Origin: an uncultured Gammaproteobacteria bacterium
GTDB taxonomy: Bacteria; Patescibacteriota; Microgenomatia; UBA8517
Length of the DNA: 64,000 nt
Direction of reading: 5' to 3'
NCBI GenBank assembly: GCA_964540475.1
Contig: CAZIMC010000001.1
Coordinates: forward strand, 9,873 to 73,872
The notes beneath the pieces are model-generated. The model made no database searches, was not told the origin of the DNA, and saw only the letters and a list, made by a program, of their open reading frames with translations. This document shows positions 27,610 through 54,550 of this stretch, one piece after another (position 1 is the stretch's first letter; every line of letters starts with the position of its first letter). Both the position numbers and the translations under genes were made by a program.

Positions 27610-28476
27610 CTATTTTTGACAATTGGGACAGTAATATGTCCCACGTCCTCCGAGGAAATCTTTGACAATTTTATCTTTTTTGCATCTTTTACAAAGCTCT
27701 CCAGTTCTTCCATAGGCCAATGTGTGGTTTTGGTAATTTCCTTCCGAGCCATCAGGGGTTACAAATGCAAGCTCACTTGCCCCACCTTCCTTGATGCCCT
27801 TTTTCAAGACCTCAAGAATCGCATCATATAACTTCTTGGTCTCTTCTTCTCTGAGATCACTTGCAGAACGTCTAGGGTTTATTGTCGCAAGCCAAAGAGC
27901 ATCATTCGCGTAAATATTCCCTACGCCCCCCATTTTTGATTGGTCAATTAAAACAAGCTTCACTGCACGCCGACTTTTTGAAAGAATGTCCCTAAAAATT
28001 GGTAAGGTAAGAAGAGCAGGCTTGCTTTTAGTGGAACCGAAAGGCTCTGGGCCTAATTTTTTGATAAACGCCGAATTCTCAACCTCGTCGGTTGGGAAAA
28101 TTTTAATCCACCCGAAGCGACGATAGTCGTTATAAAAAAGCTTTGCACCTTTATCCATCTCAAAAACCACATGCGTATGTTTTCCTGGCACTCCTCCGAA
28201 AACCTTTTTCGAGAGTGTTTGATTATTTAAATTTGGCCCACGGTAAATCAGTTGGCCAGTGAGTTTTACGTGTACAATGAATGAATATCCATTTGATAGA
28301 TCAATACAAACCACTTTCCCAAATCTCCTTGCAGTTTTGAAAGCCCCCCCCACTAAGACTGTCGTATCGCCTTCCACCACTTTAGGAGTATTTACTTTAA
28401 CCGATAAAATCTCATGCCCTTTAAGGAGTTTCGCAAGTTGGAGCTTTATTGATTCAACTTCTGGTAGTTCCGGCAT
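27610..28476 (-). CDS. mutM: formamidopyrimidine-DNA glycosylase
   Basis: N-terminal MPELPEVE, H2TH, and a C-terminal zinc finger CxxC...CxxC. Start taken at MPELPEV. Confidence 0.8.
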   Translation of the reverse strand: MPELPEVESIKLQLAKLLKGHEILSVKVNTPKVVEGDTTVLVGGAFKTARRFGKVVCIDLSNGYSFIVHVKLTGQLIYRGPNLNNQTLSKKVFGGVPGKHTHVVFEMDKGAKLFYNDYRRFGWIKIFPTDEVENSAFIKKLGPEPFGSTKSKPALLTLPIFRDILSKSRRAVKLVLIDQSKMGGVGNIYANDALWLATINPRRSASDLREEETKKLYDAILEVLKKGIKEGGASELAFVTPDGSEGNYQNHTLAYGRTGELCKRCKKDKIVKDFLGGRGTYYCPNCQK

Positions 28477-29569
28477 ATTTTCTTTCAACAAATTTTAGCA
28501 CTTCTTTCTTGAACTTTTCTTTTGAAAACTTTTTGGCTTGATTCACGCAATCCCTCGGATTAATGTTTAATTTATCAAGCCTTTTGATGGCTTTGCTCAG
28601 GCTCTCAACGCTTACCTCTTCAAAGAAAACTCCAGTTCTGCCATCGACTACTGTCTCCAAATACCCCCCACCCTTAAAGGCCACTACTGGTGTACCACAA
28701 AGCATGGCCTCAACTGGTGTAATCCCGAAATCCTCATCCGTTGCTAATGCAAGAAAAGCTTTTGCGCCTTTGTAAAGTTTAACCAGTTCTTTGTCTGTTA
28801 CATACCCTAAAAATTCAGTATTATCACCAGCAAGCTTTTGTAGATTTTTATACTCTGTGTAGTAACCCGCAGGTTTTCCGGCAATCTTTAGCTTTATCCC
28901 CAGTTTTCGTGCAGTCTTAACAGCCAAGTCCAAGCCCTTCCCGCCAACAATTCTTGAGATAACCAAGTAATAATCACCCTTAGGTGTGTCACCCGCATTG
29001 GGTAGTTCTACTGGTGGATAAATCACCGTCGCCTTTTTGCGGTAGATCTTCCAGATTCTTTCGGCTACATTTTTTGAATTAGCTAAAAAGAAATCTACCT
29101 TTTGAGCGGCTTCAAAGTCATACATCCTCATAAAATGCCCAACTATATGTGCATAGGCTCGTACTAGCTTATATTTTTGAAGTTCGATCGATGTCTTATA
29201 TCCATAAAGCCATCTCGGTGGTGTATGACAATAGCATACCTCAATAGTATGCTTACCCTTTTTAAATCCTTTTGTTATATACCAACCGGAGGAACTAACT
29301 ACAATATCATATTTTGAAAAGTCAAAACTCCCCCAAACCCAAGGTGCCAAAAATCGCAGTGGCGAGTGTAGATGTGTTGCAAAGAAGGGTATGTGGTGAA
29401 CCCACGAAGTAATTATTTTTTTCTTCTTAAACCGTTCGTATGCAGGTGATTTACTCTTATAAAACGATGTATAGATAGGAGCCTTAGGCCAAATTTCACT
29501 TAAGCTCAGTAAAACTCTTTCGGCTCCTCCGAACTCGTTTAAATAATCGTGAACTAATGCTACTTTCAT
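28454..29569 (-). CDS. glycosyltransferase family 4
   Basis: GT-B fold with a C-terminal EDFGITPVEAMLCGTPVV motif. Confidence 0.7.
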   Translation of the reverse strand: MKVALVHDYLNEFGGAERVLLSLSEIWPKAPIYTSFYKSKSPAYERFKKKKIITSWVHHIPFFATHLHSPLRFLAPWVWGSFDFSKYDIVVSSSGWYITKGFKKGKHTIEVCYCHTPPRWLYGYKTSIELQKYKLVRAYAHIVGHFMRMYDFEAAQKVDFFLANSKNVAERIWKIYRKKATVIYPPVELPNAGDTPKGDYYLVISRIVGGKGLDLAVKTARKLGIKLKIAGKPAGYYTEYKNLQKLAGDNTEFLGYVTDKELVKLYKGAKAFLALATDEDFGITPVEAMLCGTPVVAFKGGGYLETVVDGRTGVFFEEVSVESLSKAIKRLDKLNINPRDCVNQAKKFSKEKFKKEVLKFVERKYAGTTRS

Positions 29570-29571
29570 TT

Positions 29572-30480
29572 TTATAACAGTTTTATTTGCTTATACGATT
29601 CAATCTTTTGTCCAACTTTTTTAACCCGTTCTGTGAGTGTCTTAAAGCCAAATTCTTGGAATAGTTTTAAAACTTCAGGGCTATCAATGTCCCACTTTGA
29701 AGCTTTCTCAATGTCCAAGTTTATTGGCACATTCCTAACGATCGTAGATAACTTAAGTGAAAGTTTAGCATTTTCTTTGTCGTTTACCAGTTTGTTGGAC
29801 ACCTTTACCGGTAACTTGTCTAAGTTTTTGTATATATTTTCTAAACTTCCAAATTCTTCAATCAAAGTTATCGCAGTCTTAGGACCTATTCCACTAACCC
29901 CCGGGTAGTTGTCAGAGGGGTCACCCACCAAAGCTTTCAGGTCGGCAATCTGAGATGGTTCAACCCCCATTCTCTCCCGCACCTCAACTCTTCCATATAA
30001 TTTTGCGACTGAAAGACCGGACACTGGCATATAAACTCTAACACGGTCACTCACAAGCTGCAGAATGTCTTTGTCCCCTGTTACAATTACAACCTCATCT
30101 GCCAAATTACTAACTACCACAGTATGTGCGATAGTTCCAATTAAGTCATCTGCTTCAAAACCTGCTTTAAAAAAAAGGGGAATTTTTGCTGCCTCTAAGA
30201 AGCTTCTAGTTTTCGCAATCTGAGAAGACAATCCGTCCTCCATGTGCGGCCTCTGGGATTGATATTTTTCAAACACCTCGTGTCTAAAGGTCTTTTCTTT
30301 TACATCAAAACAAACCGCAACGTGTGTCGGTTTCAGGTCTTCAATAACTCTTAGAAACATTGAGACAACGCCATACAAAGCATTAATCGGCTCCCCATTT
30401 TTGGTTGTTAACGTATGGGGTATTGCATGATAAGCCCTATGGAGAATCGCAAAGCCATCGACTAGAACCAGTTTTGTCAT
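29572..30480 (-). CDS. 5'-3' exonuclease (FEN-family, stand-alone Pol I N-terminal-like domain)
   Basis: LVLVDGFAILHRAYHA, GDKDILQLV, and an H3TH region. 302 aa with no polymerase domain. Confidence 0.75.
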   Translation of the reverse strand: MTKLVLVDGFAILHRAYHAIPHTLTTKNGEPINALYGVVSMFLRVIEDLKPTHVAVCFDVKEKTFRHEVFEKYQSQRPHMEDGLSSQIAKTRSFLEAAKIPLFFKAGFEADDLIGTIAHTVVVSNLADEVVIVTGDKDILQLVSDRVRVYMPVSGLSVAKLYGRVEVRERMGVEPSQIADLKALVGDPSDNYPGVSGIGPKTAITLIEEFGSLENIYKNLDKLPVKVSNKLVNDKENAKLSLKLSTIVRNVPINLDIEKASKWDIDSPEVLKLFQEFGFKTLTERVKKVGQKIESYKQIKLL

Positions 30481-30520
30481 CTGCTTATTTTAGCAGTATG
30501 ACCCCAAAATGCATATGAAG

Positions 30521-32431
30521 TTAACCTTTAGCAAGAACTGGGCTTATTGAGGCCTTAACTTTTCTAATCTCACCAATCTTTTGACCAACTATCTTTTCAA
30601 AATCATCCCGGTCCAAGGTTTCTTTTTCTAATAGTGCATCTGCGACCTTGTCTATTATCTTTCTTGAGGTCCTAACTATTTTCGTAGCTTCTTTGTAGCA
30701 GGCATCTATTATTGACTTTACCTCATTATCAATTTTCTCTTGCATAGCTGGGGACACTTTTGCTCCTTCGTAAAACTCCATATTGCCAAAATCGCCAAAC
30801 CCGGTTTGCGCATCCCAGTTAACCGGCCCCAGTTTACTCATCCCAAAGTCAATAACCATGGCCTTCGAAAGCTTTGTGGCTTGCTCGATGTCACTTGACG
30901 CTCCTGACGTCATTTCATTGAAAACTACTTCTTCAGCGGCTCTTCCCCCAAGCATTGCAGTAATTTGCTGCAGGAAGCGCCCCTTAGTCTCATGAGTGCG
31001 GTCAGCCGCCGGAGGAATTAAGGTATGGCCCAAACTCATCCCCCTGGCAACAATCGATATTCTATGCACGGGGTCGGTTTTCGGTAAGACGTGTGCAACA
31101 ATTGCGTGCCCGGCTTCATGGTAGGCGGTAATTCTCCTATCCTCCTCTGTTTGAAGTTTTCTCTTGGCAGGGCCTAATTTAACCTTGGTTGCGGCTTCCT
31201 CAATATCCTCCATATTGATTTCCTTTTTGTTGCTTCTTGCAGCAAAGATCGCCGCCTCATTCAACATATTTTCAAGGTCTGCACCGGAAAAGCCAACAGT
31301 ACGATCAGCAACTCTGCTCCACGCAATACCTTTGGTAAACTTTTTACCTTGTGCATGAATCTTTAGTATTGCCTCCCTGCCTTCTTTATCAGGCATATCT
31401 AAAGTTATCCGTCTATCAAACCGTCCCGGTCTTAAAAGTGCAGGGTCAAGAAGATCTCCCCTATTGGTAGCGGCAACAACTATAACATTGTCATTAGGAG
31501 TAAAACCATCCATTTCTACAAGAATTTGATTCAATGTCTGTTCGCGTTCGTCATGCCCACCAACTAACCCCTTTCCTCGCTGCCTTCCTATGGCGTCGAT
31601 TTCATCAATAAAGATGATAGAAGGTGCAGACGCCTTCGCGGTTGCAAACAAATCTCTAACCCTCGAGGCTCCCACACCTACCAACATTTCCATAAATTCC
31701 GAGCCTGCCATCGAGAAAAATGGAACGCCAGCCTCACCTGCCACCGCCCTGGCCAAAAGCGTCTTTCCGACACCTGCTGGTCCAAAAAGCAAAACACCCT
31801 TAGGAGTTCTTGCCCCAATACTTCTATATTTCGCGGGGTTTTTTAGAAAATCAACAACCTCTTCTAGCTCTTGCTTTGCTTCGGTTACCCCTGCAACATC
31901 CTTGAAGGTCACTGACTGTTTACCTTTAGCGAAAAGTTTCGCCTTGCTTCTTCCGAAAGAAAATATGTCTTGTGCCCCCCTGCTTTGCGCCCTGATTATA
32001 AAAAAGAAGAAAAGAGCCATAAGCCCCAAAGGAAGAACAATTCCCAAAACTTCTCCAAACGCCCTTGTCATACTTTGGTCTGCAACGGAGTAATTAACAG
32101 TTGTTGGATCAATTCCAGCAGACTCCAAAAGTTCCGCAAAGCTTTGGTTTGGTTCTTTAATTGTATATCTCTCCACGCCGTCCAGATAAGTTAATATAAC
32201 CCTCCCATCCTGGATTACTATTTCGTCAACTCTCCCTTCACGAACATCCGTTAAGGCGGTCGAAAGCTGAATGCGGTCTTCATCCGGTTGAAGTTGCAAA
32301 GCAGAAAAGAGCATAGGGAGCATAAAGACCACCACCAATACGCCCAATAATACTGTCCAGAGGTTTAGTTTAACTTTAACACCGAATTTTCTTTTTCCGT
32401 TTTTTGATTGGTTATTGTTTTTCCCTCTCAT
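30521..32431 (-). CDS. ftsH: ATP-dependent zinc metalloprotease FtsH
   Basis: TM anchor, AAA Walker A GPAGVGKT, SRH, and HEAGHA zinc motif. Confidence 0.9.
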   Translation of the reverse strand: MRGKNNNQSKNGKRKFGVKVKLNLWTVLLGVLVVVFMLPMLFSALQLQPDEDRIQLSTALTDVREGRVDEIVIQDGRVILTYLDGVERYTIKEPNQSFAELLESAGIDPTTVNYSVADQSMTRAFGEVLGIVLPLGLMALFFFFIIRAQSRGAQDIFSFGRSKAKLFAKGKQSVTFKDVAGVTEAKQELEEVVDFLKNPAKYRSIGARTPKGVLLFGPAGVGKTLLARAVAGEAGVPFFSMAGSEFMEMLVGVGASRVRDLFATAKASAPSIIFIDEIDAIGRQRGKGLVGGHDEREQTLNQILVEMDGFTPNDNVIVVAATNRGDLLDPALLRPGRFDRRITLDMPDKEGREAILKIHAQGKKFTKGIAWSRVADRTVGFSGADLENMLNEAAIFAARSNKKEINMEDIEEAATKVKLGPAKRKLQTEEDRRITAYHEAGHAIVAHVLPKTDPVHRISIVARGMSLGHTLIPPAADRTHETKGRFLQQITAMLGGRAAEEVVFNEMTSGASSDIEQATKLSKAMVIDFGMSKLGPVNWDAQTGFGDFGNMEFYEGAKVSPAMQEKIDNEVKSIIDACYKEATKIVRTSRKIIDKVADALLEKETLDRDDFEKIVGQKIGEIRKVKASISPVLAKG

Positions 32432-32468
32432 ATATTTCTAATTTCTGTTGAATTATACCACGAATGTT

Positions 32469-32822
32469 TCAGGCTACTTTGGTGCCGTTTTCTACCTTTT
32501 CCTGTAGATTAAAAAGTATAGTTGGAGTGTCTTCATCGTCTTTGGGCACTGCCATTATCATCATGCATTCGCTGAAGTCTCCTTCCGGCCCAATCTTTTT
32601 AGGCTCTAAGTTAACCACAAAAGGATACTGATTTTCAAGCAAATCTGTGGGAGTAAAAAATTTCATAATACCTGAGAAACACACCTTCTCTCCAATTTCT
32701 GGACCAAAATCAACCGTAAGCTTCATTACCCAATGGCTCCACTGAGGAACCTCTGCTTTAATTACGGTGCCGATTCTAATATCAACTTTCTTAAAATCCT
32801 GGAATGTTATTGTGTCAGCCAT
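32469..32822 (-). CDS. tRNA-binding (Myf/EMAP-II-like, CsaA/Trbp111) domain protein
   Basis: DIRIGTVIKAE OB-fold signature. Overlaps the trpS stop. Confidence 0.55.
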   Translation of the reverse strand: MADTITFQDFKKVDIRIGTVIKAEVPQWSHWVMKLTVDFGPEIGEKVCFSGIMKFFTPTDLLENQYPFVVNLEPKKIGPEGDFSECMMIMAVPKDDEDTPTILFNLQEKVENGTKVA

Positions 32823-33801
32823 TTTTTAAAAAACCTATTTTTTCGTAGACCTCCTCCAGTTTCTTGGAAGAAAGTTGTCTTGCCTTTCTGGCTCCTTCCG
32901 ACAATATTCTGACAATCCTACCGTTCTCTTTTAAGCTGTTGTATTTTACCTGAAAATTATCTAAAAAATCGCATACTACATTTGCCAGTTCTTCTTTGAA
33001 TTCTCCATAATTTGCACCCCTAAACTTATACTCGACTTCATGTACAGAAAGACCGCTAAACTCCGAATAAATATCTATAAGATTTGTAATACCTGGTTTT
33101 TCAGCAGTTCTTTTTATTTCATTCCCGTCATCAGTCGTTGCTTTTTTAATTTTTTCAAACACAACCTCTCGGGTATCAAGCAAATATATCTTTGAATTTT
33201 CGTCTGGATCCGACTTGCTCATTTTTTTTGTTGGATCAGAAAGGCTCATTACCCTGCCGCCTACGGTTGGTATTACTGGTTCGGGTATTGTAAACGTCTG
33301 CCCGAATTTAGAATTAAATCTCTCCGCCAAATCGCGAGCCAACTCAACATGTTGTTTTTGATCCTCCCCTACAGGAACATGCGTGGTGCCATAAAGCAAA
33401 ATATCGGCGGCCATCAGGGCGGGGTATGTAAAAAGGCCTGTACTTACAAAATCTCTTTTATCAGATTTCTCTTTAAACTGTGTCATCCTGTTCATTTGTC
33501 CCATCGAAGCCATGCAGTTCATAATCCATGCAAGATTCGCATGATCGGGATTCTGGGATTGGACGAAAAGGATTGATTTTTCGGGATCTATTCCAGAAGC
33601 TAAGAGTATTGCCGCAATTTCCAAAGTCTTTTCGCGTAACACCAATGGTTCCTGGGCAACAGTAATTGCATGCATGTCAACTACACAAAAAATGTTTAGG
33701 CCGTCATTTTGCCCCTCCACCCAGTGCTTAATTGCACCGATGTAATTACCAATATGAAGATTTCCCGATGGCTGGATTCCTGAAAAGACAACATTTGCCA
33801 T
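32815..33801 (-). CDS. trpS: tryptophan--tRNA ligase
   Basis: GIQPSGNLHIGNY (HIGH) and KMSKS motifs; 328 aa. Confidence 0.9.
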   Translation of the reverse strand: MANVVFSGIQPSGNLHIGNYIGAIKHWVEGQNDGLNIFCVVDMHAITVAQEPLVLREKTLEIAAILLASGIDPEKSILFVQSQNPDHANLAWIMNCMASMGQMNRMTQFKEKSDKRDFVSTGLFTYPALMAADILLYGTTHVPVGEDQKQHVELARDLAERFNSKFGQTFTIPEPVIPTVGGRVMSLSDPTKKMSKSDPDENSKIYLLDTREVVFEKIKKATTDDGNEIKRTAEKPGITNLIDIYSEFSGLSVHEVEYKFRGANYGEFKEELANVVCDFLDNFQVKYNSLKENGRIVRILSEGARKARQLSSKKLEEVYEKIGFLKNG

Positions 33802-33871
33802 ATTTAGGCTATTTTAACATAACTTGAGCCTCAAGTGGGTTTGAGTTAAAATAGGAAGGCGCAAGTGGTTT

Positions 33872-33943
33872 GGCTACGTAGCTCAGTGGTAGAGCAAAGA
33901 TTTCATAAGTCTGAGGTCACTGGTTCGAATCCAGTCGTAGCCA
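33872..33943 (+). tRNA. tRNA-Met, elongator type (anticodon CAU)
   Basis: GGCTACGTAGCTCAGTGGTAGAGC...TTCATAA...GGTTCGAATCCAGTCGTAGCCA. The acceptor and D arms are nearly identical to E. coli elongator tRNA-Met. Confidence 0.75.
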
Positions 33944-33989
33944 CTCTGTATACATACCTGCTGTGGTATAATAGGCATGTTCACCTACA

Positions 33990-34059
33990 TGCGGGGTAGT
34001 GTACGGCTGCACGGAAGGCTCATAATCTTCCAGACCGGGTTCAACTCCCGGCCCCGCAA
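33990..34059 (+). tRNA. tRNA-Met, initiator-like (anticodon CAU)
   Basis: TGCGGGG...GGCTCATAATC...GGTTCAACTCCCGGCCCCGCAA. A weak 1-72 pair (U-A) and a CCCCGCAA 3' end resemble initiator tRNA. The alternative call is tRNA-Ile2 (LAU). Confidence 0.55.
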
Positions 34060-34065
34060 CACGAC

Positions 34066-34476
34066 TTAGAAAAATAGCTTATACCATTTTCTCCAGTTAG
34101 GATCTGGCAGCGCCTCTTCTTCTTCGGGAATCTGCGGTGCTAGCATTCGCAAGATCTCAGGTTCTGGAAGAACAATGACCACTTCACCTTCTTTTGCTAA
34201 GCCTAATTTATCTCGCATCTGTTTTTCAATAAAAGTCTGACTTTGTGCTTCAGCAATCTTTTCTTTCAGCTCCTCGTTTTCTTGCCGTAGATTCTCAATT
34301 CGCAGTTGAGAGTTTGTGATATCTTGCTTAACTTTTGAGACCCGCGCCACATTTCTAACCAGGGATATGGCAAAAAAAAGCACAATCACAACCATTCCTC
34401 CCACCATAAAAACCCGTGATTTATTCGCTAATGGGTAATGCGTAAACTTGTTTTTTTGTTTCATATTTGTCTTCAT
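34066..34476 (-). CDS. septum formation initiator (FtsB/DivIC family)
   Basis: Single TM helix then a coiled coil, and EKQMRDKLGLAKEGEVVIV, the typical C-terminal motif. Confidence 0.6.
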   Translation of the reverse strand: MKTNMKQKNKFTHYPLANKSRVFMVGGMVVIVLFFAISLVRNVARVSKVKQDITNSQLRIENLRQENEELKEKIAEAQSQTFIEKQMRDKLGLAKEGEVVIVLPEPEILRMLAPQIPEEEEALPDPNWRKWYKLFF

Positions 34477-34556
34477 AAGAAGTATTTTTAGATTGACTAA
34501 AGGGCCCCTTGTGTTATTATATAGGTCTTAGCCCGCATAAACTGCTCTTCCATATT

Positions 34557-35417
34557 ATGACACAAACATTTAAAGACCTGCTTCCGAGGTTTTTGGAAAG
34601 CTTAAAAGAAAAAGGCCGCTCACTTTCAACAGTTCTAGCCTATCGTGCTGATTTAGAACAGCTGGGGGCGTTTCTACAGGCAAGGAATAAGGTTCTTACA
34701 CCGCAGGTAACAACCCAAGATCTGGAAAGTTTCCGGGACAGCTTACTTACAGAAAAATATACCCCAAAATCAGTCTCACGGAAATTGAATGCCATAAAGA
34801 CCTTTTTCAGATGGCTTATAACGGAAAATGAAATCACCTCAGATCCTTCGGCACTTGTTGCACACCCTAAAATCGAAAATTCAGCACCAAAATTTCTCTC
34901 CCAACTTGAATATAGAGCCTTAAGAGATATTGTGCGAGACGATCCTCGCATTGCAGCGATTGTTGAGCTTATTCTCCAGACGGGCCTGCGAATTTCAGAA
35001 GTCGCAAGTTTAAAACTTGAAAATCTGGAAGATGGCTCACTCAAAGTTGAAGGCTACGCAACCCAACCTGAAAGAACCATTCCGCTTAACGCCCGAGCCC
35101 GCGAAGCGCTAAATAACTATATATCAAAACGGCCATCAGTTGATTCTCCCTATATTTTTGTAAGTAAAACCGGGAAACCCTTAGCAGTTAGAAACATAAG
35201 AGCAGCAGTTGACAGATACATGCAACGCTCAGAAATAGGGAAATTCTCAGTTAACGATTTAAGAACTACATTTATTATTGAGAATATCAAAGGCGGAGCT
35301 GACCTAATCCTTCTTTCTCAGGTCGTGGGGCACAAAAGACTCTCAACAACCGAGAAATACCTCGACCTGGCAGGGGTAAAAGAACCCGGCAAAAAACAAA
35401 ACCTACTGGAACTGTAA
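34557..35417 (+). CDS. tyrosine recombinase, XerC/XerD family
   Basis: Catalytic region with LRISEV (Arg I) and VGHKRLSTTEKYLDL (His-x-x-Arg ... Tyr). About 287 aa from MTQTF. Confidence 0.75.
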   Translation: MTQTFKDLLPRFLESLKEKGRSLSTVLAYRADLEQLGAFLQARNKVLTPQVTTQDLESFRDSLLTEKYTPKSVSRKLNAIKTFFRWLITENEITSDPSALVAHPKIENSAPKFLSQLEYRALRDIVRDDPRIAAIVELILQTGLRISEVASLKLENLEDGSLKVEGYATQPERTIPLNARAREALNNYISKRPSVDSPYIFVSKTGKPLAVRNIRAAVDRYMQRSEIGKFSVNDLRTTFIIENIKGGADLILLSQVVGHKRLSTTEKYLDLAGVKEPGKKQNLLEL

Positions 35418-38798: not shown

Positions 38799-38849
38799 AG
38801 GCTGATGGTTATAAGCATTGTCTGTTATAATACAGGTGCACAATATTTT

Positions 38850-38925
38850 GGGTCGGTAGCTCAACGGTTAGAGCACCAAGCTTATACCTTGGCGGTTGAG
38901 GGTTCGAATCCTTCCCGACCCACCA
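38850..38925 (+). tRNA. tRNA-Ile (anticodon UAU), with encoded CCA
   Basis: GGGTCGGTAGCTCAACGGTTAGAGCACCAAGCTTATACCTTGGCGGTTGAGGGTTCGAATCCTTCCCGACCCACCA. It has a perfect CCAAG/CTTGG anticodon stem, loop CTTATAC, and U33 immediately 5' of the TAT anticodon. Confidence 0.7.
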
Positions 38926-39024: not shown

Positions 39025-41358
39025 TTAAAGTTTCGCACGCCTGGTGATTTCCGCTTCCACCAGCCGGACATCCCGTCCGTATTTAAGCCTACTCATCTCT
39101 TTGATTATTTCGGCAACTCGCACATTTTCCGAGGCTTTTTGTTGGGCAATATCTTTGGTTAAGTCAAGAGAAAAGGGAGGCACTGGTTCATTCTTAACAA
39201 TCGTTTTGATGTAGGCGTTATATTTGTCAACATTAAGGAGGTCGTCTTCACCAAAAACAGGCGTAAATTCATGCGCCAAATAATTTGCATCCGTTACTCC
39301 AATTCTGAACGAGATGATCGTTCCCACATTTCCAAATATCGCGTTTTTAACTTCTTCTTCAACTTGCCCTATAAACTGGTTAGCAACACATAGCCCTAAG
39401 CGGTACTTTCTAGCCTCAGATAAAATTACAGCAAAGTCGGGTGTTGCAAAGTTTTGAAACTCGTCAACATACAAATAAAAATCCCGTCTCTGCTCTTGCG
39501 GTACATCCCCCCGGCTCATTGCAGCCATTAAGATTCTAGGAACAATTATAAGCCCTAAGAAATTGCTGTTTTCCTCCCCAAGCGAGCCTTTTGCCAGGTT
39601 TATCAGTAATATTTTGCCTTCATCCATAACCCGTCTTAAGTCAAAAGAGCTTTGGGACTGGCCAATAATGTTTCTTATAAGTTTGTTGGTAACAAACCTG
39701 CCAAACTTTGAGGTAATGTAATCTAAAACTTCAGATTTATGAAAGTCGGAAGTTTGTGCGATTTGGTCTGTCCAGTAGCGTCTAACAATTGGATCTGTAA
39801 CTTTAGGCAAAAGCTCCTGCACATAGCGAGCATCGGTTAAAATTCTCATAACTTCGATAAATGTTGTGCCTGTTTCGGCCATTGCGGTAAGCATGGCGTT
39901 TCGAACCGCATGTTCGAAACGCGGACCCACAATACCCGTTTTGTAAGGATCGAAAAGCTTGTACATCATATTGATAACGGCTGTTGAGACAAAATGCTGT
40001 TGGTCCTCAGAGTTTGCCTCTAGTAGATTAAGGCCCATAGGGCGCTCCGTATCGGCTGGATTAAAGTAAATAATATCCTCTGCACGCTCCGGAGGGACAA
40101 GTTTTAAAATATCCTCAATTGCGTCTCCATGGGGGTCCATGAAACACAAGCCTTTACCTTCTTTGATATCCTGAATGATCATGTCCTTAAGAAGCTCTGA
40201 TTTTCCAGTGCCTGTTTTTCCAATGATATAGACATGGCGCATGCGGTCTTCATTACCCACATATACAGGCCGCTTTACACCCCTATAAGAACTAAGTCCC
40301 AGAAAAAGGCCTTCAGTTGGAATTTCTGATGGAGCCGGGGCTGTTTTTGAATATACCCAGTATATATGGGGGGTTGTTACCTGTTTATTGGGGAAATGGA
40401 AAAGTGTTGCCAATTCTTCCGTATTTAGAATTGAAGGACGGTTACCAAACAAATTAAACATCGGTTGATACCGGTATAGAAAGTCCTCCATAAAGCTACC
40501 CTTATTCCAAATTTTTCGCCCCTTAAAATAATTATATTCGGATGCAAACTGGGAAAGACTTGTCCCGATGTTGTCAAGGTGAACCTTTGCAGTCTCTTTC
40601 TGTGGGGAAACACAAACAATACGCACCGAAACCTCAAACCCTGCCTTGCTAATTTTGCTTTCCACGGCTTCAAGAGTCTTTGCGGGAACTGAAAACTTGG
40701 CCTTTTCCGGATCACTTTCTTGCTTTTTGGTATCTGAAATATATCCTGAGCCAGTTTTTTGCCATGGTATATCAGTTGGTGAAACAACTATCTGAAGGCT
40801 AGCAGCCTCTCCTTCCCCCATCTTGGCCATAGCTGAGGTAATAGCTGCCAACGGATCTACTGCAAAGTCTTTAAAAACCTTAATTGGGTAGTGATTCTCC
40901 TTGGCCAATTGAAACGACTTATAGGCAACTGAGCCATTCTCGCTAAAGATGTTGTATTCAGGTACTTCAATTATTTCTGCGTCAGGATAAGCGCCGTGGA
41001 TTTGTTTTTCCATCATATCTCGCAGACTCTTGGGAAGCCACACATAAAACCTTATGTCTTCTTTTCTGGCAACTACCTCAAAAGAGACAGTTGGCTGAGT
41101 TGAAAACTTTTGCTTCCAACCCCCTTTTTTTATTGAAGCCAAAGAAGCAAATAACTGCTCCATAACATCTATTTTTGCCTCGTTTTTGGTTACACCAACT
41201 TGAAGAAGGACAGAATCAATTGAGCGGTTTTCCCGGTCTCTAAATTTGAAAAATACAAAGAGCACGTATCCCAAAATTACAAGGCTGAACACTAAAAACG
41301 TAAAAAGCAAAAGCACTAAAATAAGAGCAGCTATGTTTATTTCATTTACCGGTACCAT
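39025..41358 (-). CDS. VirD4/TrwB/TraD-like type IV coupling-protein-family ATPase (membrane anchored)
   Basis: N-terminal TM helices, Walker A GKTGTGKS (compare TrwB GATGTGKS), and Walker B LYVDEFQNF. 777 aa. Confidence 0.5.
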   Translation of the reverse strand: MVPVNEINIAALILVLLLFTFLVFSLVILGYVLFVFFKFRDRENRSIDSVLLQVGVTKNEAKIDVMEQLFASLASIKKGGWKQKFSTQPTVSFEVVARKEDIRFYVWLPKSLRDMMEKQIHGAYPDAEIIEVPEYNIFSENGSVAYKSFQLAKENHYPIKVFKDFAVDPLAAITSAMAKMGEGEAASLQIVVSPTDIPWQKTGSGYISDTKKQESDPEKAKFSVPAKTLEAVESKISKAGFEVSVRIVCVSPQKETAKVHLDNIGTSLSQFASEYNYFKGRKIWNKGSFMEDFLYRYQPMFNLFGNRPSILNTEELATLFHFPNKQVTTPHIYWVYSKTAPAPSEIPTEGLFLGLSSYRGVKRPVYVGNEDRMRHVYIIGKTGTGKSELLKDMIIQDIKEGKGLCFMDPHGDAIEDILKLVPPERAEDIIYFNPADTERPMGLNLLEANSEDQQHFVSTAVINMMYKLFDPYKTGIVGPRFEHAVRNAMLTAMAETGTTFIEVMRILTDARYVQELLPKVTDPIVRRYWTDQIAQTSDFHKSEVLDYITSKFGRFVTNKLIRNIIGQSQSSFDLRRVMDEGKILLINLAKGSLGEENSNFLGLIIVPRILMAAMSRGDVPQEQRRDFYLYVDEFQNFATPDFAVILSEARKYRLGLCVANQFIGQVEEEVKNAIFGNVGTIISFRIGVTDANYLAHEFTPVFGEDDLLNVDKYNAYIKTIVKNEPVPPFSLDLTKDIAQQKASENVRVAEIIKEMSRLKYGRDVRLVEAEITRRAKL

Positions 41359-43003: not shown

Positions 43004-43193
43004 ATAAAGTGTTATAAAGCAAACGTTATAAAACTGCAAGGATACACATTTATATACAATGCAACCTTGACTTGCTTGAGAGATTGAGTGATTATGGATA
43101 TAATGCTCAATCACATTCCGAATCGACTTCAAAAAGAGATTCAAAAGTACTTTAAAATATCCTGACCTTTGTGAGGCCAACTAGTAGTTTTTG

Positions 43194-43284
43194 TGCCCCT
43201 GGATGGATTCGAACCATCAACAGAGACGCTTCGCGGCGTTAGGGTTCACAAAACCCCTGCTTTATCCATTTAAGCTACAGGGGC
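43194..43284 (-). tRNA. atypical 91-nt tRNA with a long extra arm; the cloverleaf parse gives anticodon UGU (Thr)
   Basis: Minus strand: GCCCCTG-TA-GCTT-AAATGGATA-AAGC-A-GGGGT-TTTGTGA-ACCCT-[AACGCCGCGAAGCGTCTCTGTT]-GATGG-TTCGAAT-CCATC-CAGGGGC-A. The acceptor, D, anticodon and T arms are canonical, but a 22-nt variable region is inconsistent with Thr. Confidence 0.45.
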
Positions 43285-47981: not shown

Positions 47982-50231
47982 ATGAAAAAAGGTCCAGGTA
48001 GTAAAGCGTCTATCAAAAAGGCTGTAAAACCAGTTAATTTACCTCCGACTCTTTTAAAAAAGCTAAGAAGCAAAAGAGCCATATTCTCATTGGTGTTACT
48101 ATTATCAACCGCCGGAATTGGGATATGGCTTTTTTGGGGCTTACCGCTTCCAACAAAATTAGCCTCCAATCAATTCCCTGTCTCAACTAAGTTATATGAT
48201 CGCAGCGGAGAATTAATCTACGAAATCTACGCAGATAGAAGAAATTCCCCTGTTTCACTGGATGAGCTGCCAGAGCATATTAAACAAGCAACAATCGCAA
48301 TTGAGGACAAGGATTTTTATAAACACCGCGGTTTTTCGCTGACTGGAATCGCCAGGGCGGCATATAACACTGTTTTTAAGAGCAAGCTTCAGGGAGGCTC
48401 GACTTTAAGCCAGCAACTCGTAAAAAATACACTCCTGTCACCTGAAAGAACAATAAGGCGAAAGGCACGCGAGGTCCTGCTCACAATAATAGTCGAAAGT
48501 ATATACTCAAAAGATAAGATTTTAGAGCTTTATTTAAACCAAATTCCTTATGGTTCAACTGCATATGGTATCGAGGCTGCTAGTGAGCTTTATTTCGGTA
48601 AACCCGCCAGGGACCTAAACCTTTCCGAGGCGACACTTCTTGCAGGTTTGCCTCAAGCTCCCTCGAGATACTCACCATTTGGGGCAAACCCGGACTTTGC
48701 CAAAAATCGACAGGCTACAGTACTAGCAAGGATGGTTGAGGACGGCTATATCACCGAGGAGGAGGCCGAGGAGGCCAAAAAGACGGAATTGACATACGCA
48801 ACAAATACCCCCCCGAAAGCTCCGCACTTTGCCCTTTGGATTAAGGAACAACTGGCAGAAAAATATGGCGAAGCGGTGGTTGAACGAGGCGGTTTAAGAG
48901 TAACCACAACGCTGGATTTGGATTTGCAGGAGTTTGCACAAGCCCAAGTGGCTACTGAAGTAGGAAAACTTGCACGGCAAAACGTTAAAAACGGTGCAGT
49001 TTTGGTAACTAGACCCAAGACCGGCGAGATCTTGGCAATGGTAGGTTCGAAAGATTATTTTGCCGAGGACGAAGATGGCAAGGTAAATATTATCTTAAGG
49101 GAACGCCAGCCTGGCTCCTCTATTAAACCGCTCAATTACGCACTGGCTATAAGAGATGGAAAGATCACACCTGCCACAGTATTGGCAGACGTGCCTACAT
49201 GCTTCTCAACCGCCGGTCAGCCGCTTTATTGTCCGGGAAATTATGATGGATCTTTCCACGGTGCAACACAAACCCGTTTTGCACTAGGCAATTCGTACAA
49301 TATTCCAGCAGTAAGAGTTTTAGCTCTAAACGGAATTGAAAATTTTATAAATTTTGTTACTGAGCTGGGAATAACTACTTTTAAAGACCCCAGAAATTAT
49401 GGGCTATCACTCACTTTGGGCGGTGGAGAAGTTAGGCCGTATGACATGGCAACAGCATTCGGGGTGTTAGCTAACGAAGGTGTCAAGCAACCATTAATAT
49501 CAATACTTAAAGTAGAAGACTACACTGGACGAATACTTGAAGAGGTTGATACAAAGGAATTAGAGGGAGACAGAATTCTCTCTCCAAATGTGACATTTTT
49601 AGTTTCGCACATGTTGCACGATAACAACGCACGAATTGCCGCATTCGGTGAGAGATCTTTTTTGAATGTAGCTGGCCACCCTGAAGTGTCGGTCAAAACG
49701 GGTACGACAAATGACAGGCGCGACAACTGGACCATTGGATACACAAATCAAATACTTGTGGTTACTTGGGTTGGCAACAACGACAACTCTCCTATGAGTG
49801 GAGCAGTCTCAGGTGTTTCTGGGGCATCACCAATATGGAATGCTGTAATAAGATTTGCGTTAGATAAAGCAGAAGACGGTTTCTACAGCTCGGATGAGGT
49901 CGCCCATGCTTGGCCGAGGCAGCCAGATGGTGTAATTGGAAGAAATATTTGCGCCAACTCAGGTCTTCTCCCTGGAACAGAAGGCGAAACGCCTAATTGT
50001 CCAACCAGATTCGAGTACTTTATACAAGGTGCACTACCAAACAAAATTCACGGTGAAACAGCGGACATTCAAATTAACAAGTTGACAGGTGCTGTTGCTG
50101 GCGGCAATGCCCCACCAGAGGAAATTGAAACCCAAAATAAAACTGTAGTATACGATCCACTGGGTACGGTATATTGTTTAGATTGTGCAATCCCAAAAGA
50201 CACAATCGTTGTTCGCTATCCTTTGCGCTAG
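47982..50231 (+). CDS. class A penicillin-binding protein (PBP1A, transglycosylase and transpeptidase)
   Basis: TM anchor, glycosyltransferase motifs EDKDFYKHRGF and GGSTLSQQL, and transpeptidase motifs SSIKP (SxxK), SYN and KTGTTN. Confidence 0.85.
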   Translation: MKKGPGSKASIKKAVKPVNLPPTLLKKLRSKRAIFSLVLLLSTAGIGIWLFWGLPLPTKLASNQFPVSTKLYDRSGELIYEIYADRRNSPVSLDELPEHIKQATIAIEDKDFYKHRGFSLTGIARAAYNTVFKSKLQGGSTLSQQLVKNTLLSPERTIRRKAREVLLTIIVESIYSKDKILELYLNQIPYGSTAYGIEAASELYFGKPARDLNLSEATLLAGLPQAPSRYSPFGANPDFAKNRQATVLARMVEDGYITEEEAEEAKKTELTYATNTPPKAPHFALWIKEQLAEKYGEAVVERGGLRVTTTLDLDLQEFAQAQVATEVGKLARQNVKNGAVLVTRPKTGEILAMVGSKDYFAEDEDGKVNIILRERQPGSSIKPLNYALAIRDGKITPATVLADVPTCFSTAGQPLYCPGNYDGSFHGATQTRFALGNSYNIPAVRVLALNGIENFINFVTELGITTFKDPRNYGLSLTLGGGEVRPYDMATAFGVLANEGVKQPLISILKVEDYTGRILEEVDTKELEGDRILSPNVTFLVSHMLHDNNARIAAFGERSFLNVAGHPEVSVKTGTTNDRRDNWTIGYTNQILVVTWVGNNDNSPMSGAVSGVSGASPIWNAVIRFALDKAEDGFYSSDEVAHAWPRQPDGVIGRNICANSGLLPGTEGETPNCPTRFEYFIQGALPNKIHGETADIQINKLTGAVAGGNAPPEEIETQNKTVVYDPLGTVYCLDCAIPKDTIVVRYPLR

Positions 50232-50273
50232 TTTCCCCTACTAACTCACTAGTTTTGCTATATAATAGGCGCG

Positions 50274-52739
50274 GTGGCAAAACGCGCCAGGAAACACAAT
50301 GAAAAATTTGCCCAACTCTTAAAGGTTAATGCCCTGGACTTGATTCAGAGGGTGTTGATAATTATTGGTAAACCAGTATATTTCATTCTTTCTTCTACAA
50401 TTATCATTTTCCTTTACTCCTCATATTTAATTGGCTCAACCCTTATTTCTTTAAGTAAGCAGCTTGGTAAAACTCTCGAAAGGTTATATAAAACTTGGAC
50501 AGCAAAATTTACAAAGCCTAAAGCTTCAAAGTGGCTTTTAAATCTTGTCATTTTAAAAGCTAAATTAAATCTGTTCGCCTTAGGGTCCAAACTAAGAAGT
50601 AGTAAAACAAAAATTAAGAAAAGACCAAAGACCCTCACCATATTTTATCAATTCTCTCTGGCAGGTTTTCTTTTAATACTTACTTTGGGTTTTGGGTTCT
50701 GGTATATAATACTCAGAGATCTTCCAGAACCAGCAGAACTGACCCAAAGAGATCTTGAAGTGTCAACAAAAATTTACGATAGGAACGGCATACTTCTATA
50801 TAAAATATACCGCGACCAAAACAGAACCCCCATAGCGCTTTCCCAAATCCCCATTCATGCACGGCTTGCCACAATCGCCATTGAGGATGCCGAATTCTAC
50901 AACCATCCTGGCTTCTCGCTGCGCGGTATTTTGCGCGCAATTATTAGGAATGTTCAAAAAGGAGAACTTGCTGGCGGCTCAACAATCACCCAACAGTTAG
51001 TAAAAAATGCCCTTCTATCCCCCGAAAAAACATTACCGCGAAAGTTAAAGGAGTTAATACTCGCAGTTCAGGTTGAGCTATCATTCTCCAAAGATGAAAT
51101 TCTTGAGATGTACCTTAATGAGGTAAGTTATGGAGGAACGGCGTATGGTATTCAAGAAGCATCGCAGGTTTATTTTGGTAAAAATGCACAGGATTTGACA
51201 TTGGGAGAAGCATCGCTCCTGGCTGGTCTTCCCAAAAGCCCATCCCGCTTTTCTCCTTTTGGTTCACACCCTGAGCTTGCACTTGCACGACAAAAAGAAG
51301 TTTTAAATTTGATGGTTAATAATAAGTTTATTACTGAAGAGGCAAAAGTAGGGGCAGAAAATGAAATTCTAAGATTTAACCAAAACAAAATCGATATTAA
51401 AGCTCCACACTTCGTTATGTATGTAAGAGAGTTACTAGCAGAAATGTATGGCGAGGAAACACTCACAACGGGTGGCTTAGAAGTCATAACTTCCTTAGAC
51501 CTCTCAATTCAGCAGATGGCTGAAAACGCTGTCCGGGAAGAGGTTGAACGAATTAAAAACCTGAATGTCGGAAATGGTGCAGCCGTAGTAGTTAACCCAA
51601 CTACAGGTGAAGTACTAGCAATGGTGGGATCTAAAAATTACTTTGACTACCAAAATGACGGCAATGTTAATGTGGCAGTTAGGCCGAGACAACCAGGTTC
51701 TTCAATTAAAGTTATAAATTACGCCCATGCCCTCTCAAACGGATTAACTCCAGCTTCAACTATTAGCGACACCCCAATTACGTTTTCAGTACCCGGCAGC
51801 GCACCTTATACACCCAGAAACTACGATAATACATATCGCGGTACAATTACGCTACGCAGCGCATTGGCAGAAAGCAGGAATATTCCTGCTGTTAAAGTCC
51901 TGGCCAGCTATGGTGTTGAAAAAATGATTGAGTTGGGACGCAATATGGGAATTACGACTTGGGACAATTCGTCACGGTTTGGCTTGTCCCTCACCCTGGG
52001 AGGAGGAGAAGTCAAGTTAATTGAGCTTGCACAAGTTTACGCCACAATTGCCAATTACGGAAAACGCGCAGATCTAACTAGTATTTTGCGGGTCACAAAT
52101 TATAAAGGCAAAACACTAATGTCTAGTGAATGCAAAAAAAATGCTACTTCCTGGGCTAGCATTGTACACGCCTCTGAAGCAACTCCTCCCAGTTGCGAGG
52201 GTAAAGAAGTGTTGGATAAAAGAGTTGCTTTTCTACTTATTGATATCCTAAAAGACAACATTGCGCGTGCTCCAGCATTTGGACTTAATTCTCAGCTGGT
52301 TATCCCCAAACACAACGAGGTGGCAGTCAAAACTGGCACCAGCAACGACTTAAGAGACAATCTGACAGTGGGCTTTAATCAAGATTATGTTGTCGCGGTA
52401 TGGGTGGGAAACAATAACAACGCACCAATGAGCAGAATCGCATCTGGTGTAACCGGAGCTGCGCCCATATGGAATAGAATAATGGTTAGCCTACTAGCCA
52501 ACACCTCAAATCACGATTGGGTAATACCTGAAGGGGTCATCAAGCTCCCTATCTGCACATTGACTGGAACATTAACATGCGAGGGTTGTCCAACTAGAGG
52601 AGAATGGTTTTTAGAAGAGGCTACACCAACGAGAGCATGCAGCCCAGAGGTGATTGAAAGAATACGCCTAGAACGCGAGGAGCAAGAAAAACAAAGATTA
52701 GAAGGACAGATTATTGAACCGGCTGCGAGCTTCCCTTAA
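50274..52739 (+). CDS. class A penicillin-binding protein, second tandem paralog with an extended N-terminus
   Basis: EDAEFYNHPGF, GGSTITQQL, SSIKV and KTGTSND motifs. About 130 extra N-terminal residues, including the TM segment. Confidence 0.85.
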   Translation: MAKRARKHNEKFAQLLKVNALDLIQRVLIIIGKPVYFILSSTIIIFLYSSYLIGSTLISLSKQLGKTLERLYKTWTAKFTKPKASKWLLNLVILKAKLNLFALGSKLRSSKTKIKKRPKTLTIFYQFSLAGFLLILTLGFGFWYIILRDLPEPAELTQRDLEVSTKIYDRNGILLYKIYRDQNRTPIALSQIPIHARLATIAIEDAEFYNHPGFSLRGILRAIIRNVQKGELAGGSTITQQLVKNALLSPEKTLPRKLKELILAVQVELSFSKDEILEMYLNEVSYGGTAYGIQEASQVYFGKNAQDLTLGEASLLAGLPKSPSRFSPFGSHPELALARQKEVLNLMVNNKFITEEAKVGAENEILRFNQNKIDIKAPHFVMYVRELLAEMYGEETLTTGGLEVITSLDLSIQQMAENAVREEVERIKNLNVGNGAAVVVNPTTGEVLAMVGSKNYFDYQNDGNVNVAVRPRQPGSSIKVINYAHALSNGLTPASTISDTPITFSVPGSAPYTPRNYDNTYRGTITLRSALAESRNIPAVKVLASYGVEKMIELGRNMGITTWDNSSRFGLSLTLGGGEVKLIELAQVYATIANYGKRADLTSILRVTNYKGKTLMSSECKKNATSWASIVHASEATPPSCEGKEVLDKRVAFLLIDILKDNIARAPAFGLNSQLVIPKHNEVAVKTGTSNDLRDNLTVGFNQDYVVAVWVGNNNNAPMSRIASGVTGAAPIWNRIMVSLLANTSNHDWVIPEGVIKLPICTLTGTLTCEGCPTRGEWFLEEATPTRACSPEVIERIRLEREEQEKQRLEGQIIEPAASFP

Positions 52740-53482: not shown

Positions 53483-54550
53483 TCAATTGCCAATTTGTTG
53501 AGCATATAAAAGCTTTGCTAATTCGGGGAAGATTGCATCAGCCTCTTTTTCAACGACTCCTTGTGTCATTATCACCAGAACAAACGGTTTTTGTCCGTAA
53601 ATAATACCTGCATCGTTAACAACGTGAATCTCTCTTCCATACTTGTGTGCCACCCGCACATCGGCAATCCCGGCTTTAAGATGGCTCTCATAAATTGTGT
53701 CCGTTAGTGATTCAAGGATTTCGTTCCTGTTCGCATCGCTAACTAACTCATTTTTCCACAGCTTCTCGAAAAGCAACCCGACTTCGTAAGGCGTTGTTTG
53801 GTTTTTTGGCAAATCTGTTCTTGTCATTCCTATTTCATCCATAACTAACCTGATTTTTTCTTCCCCAATTCGCCTCCTAACTATTCCAAAGGCGGTGTTA
53901 TCGGATTGCTTACCCATAAGCCGCCCAAGCTCCCTATAAGTCAAAACGGTTCCCACAGGCTTTCCGGCCAAACTTCCGGACCCACCTATTTTATCTGAGT
54001 TCTTTAACGTATATGTGCTATCCAAGTTGATTCTCCCTGCTTCTGCTTCTTTGTAAAGAGCAATCATAACCGGAAGCTTCACAAGTGATGCCGCCTGCAT
54101 AACCTCACTCTCACCTACTCCATACCTGTTTCCCTCAGCAAGGTCAACTATATAGAAGGAATAGATTCCGGACAGGTTTCTTGTAATGGAATTAAAAAGA
54201 CTGATGGTCTCAAGGTTTTTCTTCCCGGCAGTAGTTACGTCGCCAATTACAATAGTTTCTTCCTCGAATAGATTGAGATTTAGTGAAGATAAACTCAGTC
54301 TAGGTAGACCAGGTAGTTTCCATTCTCTTGCCGAAACAGCAAGAACCGCCGAACATAGAATGGTTGCCAACAAAATGGATGAAACCAAGACTCGCTCCTT
54401 TTTACCCCACGGCTTTGGGGGCTCTTTACGGTTTCTCTTGTTTTCAGGTTTTAAATCTTTAATGCTTCTAGAAGAGACCGTTCTATTTAATCCTTCCCCG
54501 TTAAACCTCTCCTTTTCAATGTTCTCTTCTTTATTTCCAAAAAGGCGCAT
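53483..54550 (-). CDS. class A beta-lactamase-like serine hydrolase, membrane anchored
   Basis: SxxK (ASLVK), SDN (KQSDNTA), and a KTG-like KYG. N-terminal TM segment and linker. Confidence 0.5.
   Translation of the reverse strand: MRLFGNKEENIEKERFNGEGLNRTVSSRSIKDLKPENKRNRKEPPKPWGKKERVLVSSILLATILCSAVLAVSAREWKLPGLPRLSLSSLNLNLFEEETIVIGDVTTAGKKNLETISLFNSITRNLSGIYSFYIVDLAEGNRYGVGESEVMQAASLVKLPVMIALYKEAEAGRINLDSTYTLKNSDKIGGSGSLAGKPVGTVLTYRELGRLMGKQSDNTAFGIVRRRIGEEKIRLVMDEIGMTRTDLPKNQTTPYEVGLLFEKLWKNELVSDANRNEILESLTDTIYESHLKAGIADVRVAHKYGREIHVVNDAGIIYGQKPFVLVIMTQGVVEKEADAIFPELAKLLYAQQIGN

Follow-up and report, generated by a model that had tools for sequence, protein, structure and literature searches.

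How is the isoleucine codon AUA read in the bacterium from which this DNA comes? A paper on TilS published in 2025 states that most bacteria have no direct reader of AUA and that about 98% of annotated genomes conserve tilS (PMC12514573). The DNA analysed here is a stretch of 64 kb, which makes up ~15% of its source contig of 439,997 bp and is referred to below as the window. A preliminary description of it had claimed a genomically encoded tRNA-Ile whose own anticodon is UAU. The locus therefore raises the question of whether this gene serves the cell as its AUA decoder in place of lysidine, whether it is a redundant copy beside tilS and tRNA-Ile2(CAU), whether it arrived with a mobile element, or whether it is an isoleucine tRNA at all. 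We addressed this question through the structure of the gene, the use of AUA in the window, the other tRNAs with which it would share the AUN box, its chromosomal neighbourhood and its distribution across lineages.

A tRNA gene with a UAU anticodon

ARAGORN revealed six tRNA genes in the window and called the one in question a tRNA-Ile with the anticodon tat (Table 1). Against the Rfam tRNA family RF00005, the gene scored 71.9 bits (E 9e-14) over positions 38850-38922, which is well over the gathering score of that family (29) and is the top score among the six tRNAs of the window. Direct reading of the sequence gave an acceptor stem of GGGUCGG/CCGACCC, a D stem of GCUC/GAGC, an anticodon stem of CCAAG/CUUGG that encloses the loop C32-U33-U34-A35-U36-A37-C38, and a T arm of GAGGG-UUCGAAU-CCUUC, together with the discriminator A73 and an encoded CCA. 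When the window tRNA was aligned with 29 related UAU tRNAs, the cloverleaf comprised 21 pairs, and compensatory changes were present at 15 of the 21. Minimum free energy folding of the single sequence produced no cloverleaf, as is usual for tRNAs, whereas the covariance model and the alignment both did. A generic UAU-tRNA pattern, TAGCTCAN{2,4}GGTNAGAGCNNNNNNYTTATA, matched the window once and did not match any of 100 shuffles. These findings confirmed that this is a genuine tRNA gene with a UAU anticodon. The clean cloverleaf and the loop C-U-U-A-U-A-C of the preliminary description agree with ARAGORN, Rfam, the sequence and covariation, the loop having been read exactly, and the claim of a genomically encoded tRNA-Ile(UAU) was supported. 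The gene also combines a TAT anticodon with A37, as is expected of a decoder of the Mycoplasma mobile type.

Table 1. Positions of the features discussed in the text, numbered from the first nucleotide of the window.
Feature	Position	Strand	Basis or remark
Conserved block upstream of tRNA-Ile(UAU)	27610-35417		Pfam/NCBIfam and synteny
Fpg	27610-28491		upstream block
GT4 glycosyltransferase	28454-29569		upstream block
5'-3' exonuclease	29572-30480		upstream block
FtsH	30521-32431		upstream block
117-aa ORF	32469-32822		upstream block
TrpS	32815-33801		upstream block
tRNA(CAU), elongator-Met type	33872-33944	+	ARAGORN; Rfam 70.5 bits
tRNA(CAU), initiator-like, atypical	33990-34060	+	ARAGORN; Rfam 49.6 bits; sequence
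FtsB/L-like gene	34066-34476		upstream block, after both CAU tRNAs
Xer-like tyrosine recombinase	34509-35417		upstream block
Extended -10-like box TGTTATAAT	38823-38831	+	read from sequence
tRNA-Ile(UAU) gene	38850-38925	+	ARAGORN; Rfam tRNA; direct sequence reading; covariation in 30 UAU tRNAs
Anticodon of tRNA-Ile(UAU)	38883-38885		landmark
A37	38886		landmark
C38	38887		landmark
Discriminator A	38922		landmark
Encoded CCA	38923-38925		landmark
VirD4/TraD-like coupling ATPase gene	39025-41358	-	Pfam TrwB_AAD_bind, TraG-D_C; convergent with tRNA-Ile(UAU)
Thr(UGU) tRNA-like gene	43193-43284	-	Rfam tRNA 60.4 bits
Two PBP1A-family genes in tandem	47982-52739	+	749 and 821 aa
Class A beta-lactamase-family gene	53483-54550		near the PBP1A pair

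The overall similarity of the sequence did not reveal from which isoacceptor the UAU tRNA descends. A kinship to phage tRNA-Lys or to that of E. coli was considered and rejected, the similarity being generic. The identity elements of the isoleucyl-tRNA synthetase (IleRS) of E. coli include A38, C29-G41 and C4-G69. At these positions, the window tRNA has C38, A29-U41 and U4-A69. Because these three elements are absent, the case for charging by IleRS is built on A73, A35, U36 and A37 together with the genetic-code argument. No gene for IleRS is encoded in the 64-kb window. The class I synthetases that adjoin UAU tRNAs in three bacterial loci (L014, L063 and L091) were considered as candidate IleRSs and proved to be ValRS.

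Upstream of the gene lies an extended -10-like box, with 18 nt between its last base and the 5' end of the tRNA, and the tRNA genes of the initiator-like, Gln and Glu types have boxes at a comparable distance before them (TGGTATAAT, TATAAT and TAAAAT, respectively). The box before tRNA-Ile(UAU) was not called in a consensus promoter scan for which a -35 hexamer is obligatory. We regard it as the putative promoter of this gene itself, and the occurrence of such boxes before several tRNA genes fits independently transcribed housekeeping tRNAs, which would imply that the gene is expressed.

Another tRNA-like gene of the window deserves mention in its own right. This Thr(UGU) gene is 92 nt long, has a variable region enlarged by an insertion of 18 nt (acgccgcgaagcgucucu), has G37 instead of A after U36 (loop UUUGUGA) and leaves CCA unencoded. 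A Thr tRNA with a long variable arm is unusual for bacteria, and the anticodon arm of this gene had no exact match in metagenome contigs.

AUA codons and the CAU tRNAs of the window

The preliminary description had pointed to AUA frequency as a check on its reading, and AUA turned out to be a heavily used isoleucine codon. Across 57 ORFs of the window (19,088 codons), ATA occurs 366 times, which corresponds to 19.2 per 1000 codons and to 27.6% of the Ile codons, and it is commoner than ATC. It is found in 55 of the 57 ORFs, including those for FtsH (16 occurrences), TrpS (9) and the ribonucleotide reductase (13). In tblastn alignments with homologues, ATA positions corresponded to I in 42%, V in 19%, L in 15% and M in 4% of cases; ATT and ATC showed the same profile, while ATG differed from it, with M at 27%. 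AUA is thus an abundant Ile codon in the genes of the window and one that needs efficient decoding.

The window contains only two CAU tRNAs according to ARAGORN. One has the acceptor stem GGCUACG/CGUAGCC, which we take to be that of E. coli elongator tRNA-Met, and among the five E. coli tRNAs that were compared it was closest to elongator Met (61/72 positions). The other has the acceptor stem UGCGGGG/CCCCGCA with A73, a U1-A72 pair at positions 1 and 72, U11:A24, and an anticodon stem (GAAGG/UCUUC) with one of the three canonical initiator G-C pairs; its closest match was E. coli tRNA-fMet. Both the acceptor stems and the comparison with E. coli agree with the earlier assignment of the nearby CAU tRNAs to the elongator Met and initiator types, and neither of the two looks like a tRNA-Ile2. 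Exactly two CAU tRNAs were likewise found beside the UAU tRNA in seven related loci (L095, L164, L201, L208, L191, L030 and L076).

The initiator-like tRNA is itself odd, with a D loop of 6 nt, a T loop of UUCAACU and the U1-A72 pair in place of the C1xA72 mismatch. Near-identical copies of it are present on two Patescibacteria contigs (L003, 98-168, and L030, 1153-1223, both on the minus strand), and canonical CGCGGG initiators are found in other CPR loci (L015, L057 and L076).

We searched for the lysidine enzyme by tblastn with TilS of E. coli K-12. There was no match in the 64-kb window (best E 4.5), none at E <= 1e-3 in the 120 GTDB loci listed and none at E <= 0.01 in 632 kb of metagenome loci, so that no TilS was detected across ~1.5 Mb of related loci. 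In addition, Pfam and NCBIfam revealed no PP-loop ATPase among 40 ORFs of the window. Presumably, tilS and tRNA-Ile2(CAU) are missing from the rest of the genome as well.

Chromosomal setting and distribution across lineages

Pfam and NCBIfam assignments indicated that the window encodes ordinary chromosomal functions, including RecF, Fpg, a 5'-3' exonuclease, FtsH, TrpS, a class II ribonucleotide reductase, two PBP1A-type proteins, a class I aldolase and P-type ATPases. The two PBP1A-family genes stand in tandem, and a gene of the class A beta-lactamase family lies near them. Upstream of the UAU tRNA is a block of genes that begins with Fpg and ends with a Xer-like tyrosine recombinase (Table 1). 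Parts of this block recur in a GTDB locus (L095) and in L164, L191, L201 and L208, which are metagenome contigs with an anticodon arm identical to that of the window tRNA. In L201, Fpg, the GT4 glycosyltransferase, the 5'-3' exonuclease, FtsH and TrpS are followed by two tRNA(CAU) genes and tRNA-Ile(UAU); L164 and L208 carry FtsH, TrpS, two CAU tRNAs, the Xer-like gene and the UAU tRNA; and L191 and L095 carry the same order from TrpS onwards. The proteins of the block are 30-59% identical to those of the window in the syntenic contigs. Xer-like homologues (41-47% identity) and pairs of CAU tRNAs also lie within a few kb of the UAU tRNA in L095, L030 and L076, and a Xer-like homologue with a single CAU tRNA is found in L057.

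On the other side of the tRNA, a VirD4/TraD-like coupling ATPase gene is convergent with it. Homologues of this gene stand directly beside the UAU tRNA in L103, L053, L002, L030 and L076 (52-62% identity) and adjoin it in the metagenome contigs L147 (64%), L211 and L132 as well. Farther along, the neighbours in the relatives are housekeeping genes such as Maf, Lgt, MIP (aquaporin) and polyprenyl synthetase, and no T4SS or relaxase genes lie there. A survey counted 5,713 VirD4-type genes across 2,918 CPR genomes; most of them lie at a distance from virB4, and relaxases are rare (bioRxiv 10.1101/2025.01.22.634366).

Several side observations concern these loci. Of the 120 GTDB matches listed, 22 (among them L012, L026, L113 and L117) encode FtsH within 8 kb around the UAU tRNA, and in all four loci that were checked the tRNA lies just 3' of ftsH on the same strand; in many bacteria, ftsH follows tilS-hpt. 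The loci L002 and L030, and probably L027, L046, L056, L070, L096 and L115, have record titles that name an uncultured Gammaproteobacteria or Pseudomonadales bacterium and contain genes of CPR type. Their VirD4-like proteins are 56-62% identical to that of the window, the same range as in Curtissbacteria L053, and L030 also has the unusual initiator tRNA; the taxonomy in such record titles seems unreliable. In L053, at ~2420-2540 on the minus strand, a 5' tRNA fragment that extends to the UAU anticodon is followed immediately by a complete tRNA-Ile(UAU) (ARAGORN 2420-2492), an arrangement that looks like a partial tandem duplication of the tRNA.

To reveal how widespread such tRNAs are, we searched GTDB genomes, one for each species, with the generic pattern, which yielded at least 120 loci (L001-L120). 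By the lineage labels in their record titles, the 120 matches listed include 49 from CPR, 22 from archaea, 11 from Planctomycetota and 5 from Chloroflexota-related bacteria, the rest being scattered or unclassified. The archaeal matches listed are mostly from DPANN; in many of them the anticodon is followed directly by an additional stretch that appears to be an intron. ARAGORN called 99 tRNA-Ile(tat) genes among the 120 matches listed, 98 of them of normal length, and among these 98 the anticodon loop was CUUAUAA in 52, CUUAUAC in 39 and CUUAUAU in 7. The exact anticodon arm of the window tRNA is present on 102 metagenome contigs. The preliminary description had stated that an encoded UAU tRNA-Ile is known from just a few lineages. 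With at least 120 GTDB loci, mostly in Patescibacteria, DPANN and Planctomycetota, and with these 102 contigs, the premise of rarity is outdated for uncultivated lineages.

As regards the source of the window, the nearest relatives of its informative proteins come from contigs labelled Patescibacteria group, Curtissbacteria, Shapirobacteria and Saccharibacteria, and ten of its proteins are singletons at 90% identity in a large protein collection. The UAU tRNAs closest to that of the window among the GTDB matches listed are in L038 and L095, MAGs labelled Saccharibacteria. Judged from best hits as distinct from phylogeny, the source is most likely a Patescibacteria (CPR) bacterium and probably a Microgenomatia-like one.

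Published counts extend this picture to complete genomes. Table S2 of PMC13011429 gives ARAGORN tRNA counts for 95 complete Patescibacteria genomes, by amino acid without anticodons and with all CAU tRNAs labelled Met. Ile counts of at least 2 together with Met counts of at most 2 are found in 12/12 Microgenomatia, 7/7 Dojkabacteria and 13/20 Paceibacteria, in single Doudnabacteria, WWE3 and UBA1384 genomes, and in 2/5 Gracilibacteria and 2/4 ABY1 (PMC13011429). Met counts of at least 3 are found in 36/36 Saccharimonadia, 7/7 JAEDAM01 and Kazan-3B-28, with Ile = 1 in most of these, while Ile = 2 occurs together with Met = 3 in 7/36 complete Saccharimonadia (PMC13011429). An Ile count of 2 is consistent with one GAU and one UAU tRNA, and the two patterns are consistent with, but no proof of, a split between classes that use UAU and classes that use lysidine. 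It seems to us an evenly balanced question whether direct reading of AUA by a genomic UAU tRNA without lysidine is the rule in several whole Patescibacteria classes (Microgenomatia, Dojkabacteria, most Paceibacteria and parts of ABY1 and Gracilibacteria) and is common in DPANN and Planctomycetota. If it is, the sister classes Saccharimonadia and Absconditabacteria/JAEDAM01 may keep the lysidine system with three CAU tRNAs.

Competing explanations and known systems

The preliminary description had offered, as an alternative, that the tRNA is island-borne, and under this explanation it would be an accessory gene brought in by an integrative or conjugative element, of which the tyrosine recombinase and the VirD4-like protein would be the signs. 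The recombinase indeed stands right after both CAU tRNAs, a homologue of a T4SS coupling protein adjoins the UAU tRNA, and tRNA genes are frequent integration sites. However, the recombinase is of the Xer-like kind, and relatives have a homologue of it in the same place (41-50% identity), and the VirD4-like gene likewise recurs beside the tRNA (52-64%) with housekeeping genes beyond it and with neither a relaxase nor other T4SS genes, as would suit the lone VirD4-type genes that are common on CPR chromosomes (bioRxiv 10.1101/2025.01.22.634366). The GC content is uniform, at about 41% across the window and 0.41-0.44 over the tRNA region. No second copy of the 3' end of the tRNA was found in the window with <=3 mismatches, nor any att-like repeat, and none of 2.9 million viral contigs matched the anticodon arm exactly. 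In view of the conserved synteny in independent contigs, the lack of a 3'-end repeat in the window, the uniform GC and the lack of a viral match, we rejected the island origin as highly improbable; the region appears to be core chromosome, and the tRNA to have been vertically inherited. It is scarcely credible, too, that the UAU tRNA is charged with an amino acid other than isoleucine or that AUA has been reassigned in this lineage. Such a scenario would accommodate an overall sequence that resembles Ile(GAU) tRNAs no more closely than those for Val, Met or Lys, as well as the several missing E. coli identity elements of IleRS, but ATA positions align with I, V and L in exactly the manner of ATT and ATC positions, rather than with M. 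Moreover, A73 is near-universal in UAU tRNAs (95/98 among the matches listed), and A37 after U36 is expected of t6A-bearing tRNAs that read ANN codons.

The main remaining rival is redundancy, in which tilS and tRNA-Ile2(CAU) would lie outside the window and AUA would be read by both LAU and UAU tRNAs. There are precedents for it: both systems coexist in Lactobacillus casei/plantarum, Cyanothece and Ferrimonas, where they were described as transitional (PMC3575796), and 7/36 complete Saccharimonadia combine Ile = 2 with Met = 3 (PMC13011429). The two closest UAU tRNAs among the GTDB matches listed (L038 and L095) come from MAGs with Saccharibacteria labels. In addition, ~85% of the source contig lies outside the 64-kb window. 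Against this stand the two CAU tRNAs, exactly, in the window and in each of the seven related loci named above, and the lack of a TilS match in both the window and the related loci, which amount to ~1.5 Mb. The protein relatives are moreover of Microgenomatia type (L053, Curtissbacteria; L104, Shapirobacteria), and all 12 complete genomes of that class have at most two CAU tRNAs. We therefore consider redundancy unlikely. It is probable, in our judgement, that tRNA-Ile(UAU) is the AUA decoder in place of lysidine and a housekeeping minor Ile tRNA of a Patescibacteria (CPR) bacterium. In this case, the gene would be transcribed, with the extended -10 box as its probable promoter, and its product charged with Ile by IleRS. 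The abundant AUA codon would then be read through U34-A pairing, lysidine would be unnecessary, by analogy with the UAU system of Mycoplasma mobile, and misreading of AUG would presumably be prevented by some adaptation of IleRS, of the ribosome or of U34 modification.

For the window, the outcome is mainly a correct annotation, that of a probable AUA decoder in the core chromosome and not on an island. Systems of this kind are already known, so that the gene appears to be a further member whose trait is the norm in its lineage. In the literature that was searched, no link of lysidine, TilS or the AUA codon to CPR/Patescibacteria was found, and CPR is unmentioned in an IleRS preprint, in an ava2C paper and in the TilS paper PMC12514573. 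Published counts divide the Patescibacteria classes into a two-CAU and a three-CAU type (PMC13011429). If the UAU tRNA is the rule in the former, a sizeable part of bacterial diversity would lie outside the textbook rule of ~98% tilS, and the class split would be a natural experiment on the changes in IleRS, the ribosome or U34 modification that make an unprotected UAU safe; the proposed ancestral status of UAU decoding could be tested on it as well. A census of tilS, CAU and UAU tRNAs and IleRS types across the classes would add modestly but usefully to the understanding of AUN-box decoding.

The closest known system is that of Mycoplasma mobile (Taniguchi et al. 2013, PMC3575796). In M. mobile, U34 of tRNA-Ile2(UAU) is unmodified, Arg865 of IleRS takes the place of W905 in the E. 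coli enzyme, and the ribosome blocks the reading of AUG; the same study listed nine bacterial species, from three clades, that lack tilS, and noted 371 TAT tRNA genes in metagenomes (PMC3575796). Shared with the window are an encoded UAU anticodon with A37, a small genome, the frequent use of AUA and the fact that no lysidine-dependent CAU isoacceptor is apparent near the window tRNA. The two differ in that the state of U34, the IleRS Arg865 and the ribosomal discrimination against AUG were shown experimentally in M. mobile, whereas for the window tRNA some such adaptation is presumed. They also differ in that M. mobile represents an isolated loss within the Tenericutes, whereas the trait of the window appears common to whole Patescibacteria classes with conserved synteny, and in that the loop of the window tRNA has C38. 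Bifidobacterium and Neorickettsia also have a TAT tRNA gene and are lineages without tilS (PMC3575796); charging of their UAU tRNA, however, is attributed to a type 2, eukaryote-type IleRS (IleRS2), whereas the window encodes no IleRS. With the canonical system of tRNA-Ile2(CAU) and TilS, the window tRNA shares the reading of AUA as Ile, the A73 discriminator and A37. In contrast to that system, the gene encodes U34 and not C34, so that the TilS step would be unneeded, and no TilS was detected in the window. Among archaea, which otherwise use agmatidine (TiaS), the DPANN tRNA-Ile(UAU), for example that of Nanoarchaeum, resembles the window tRNA in carrying a UAU anticodon in ultra-small symbiotic lineages, but many of the archaeal genes among the matches listed have the apparent intron after the anticodon. 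The UAU tRNAs of archaea and of Patescibacteria are independent in origin.
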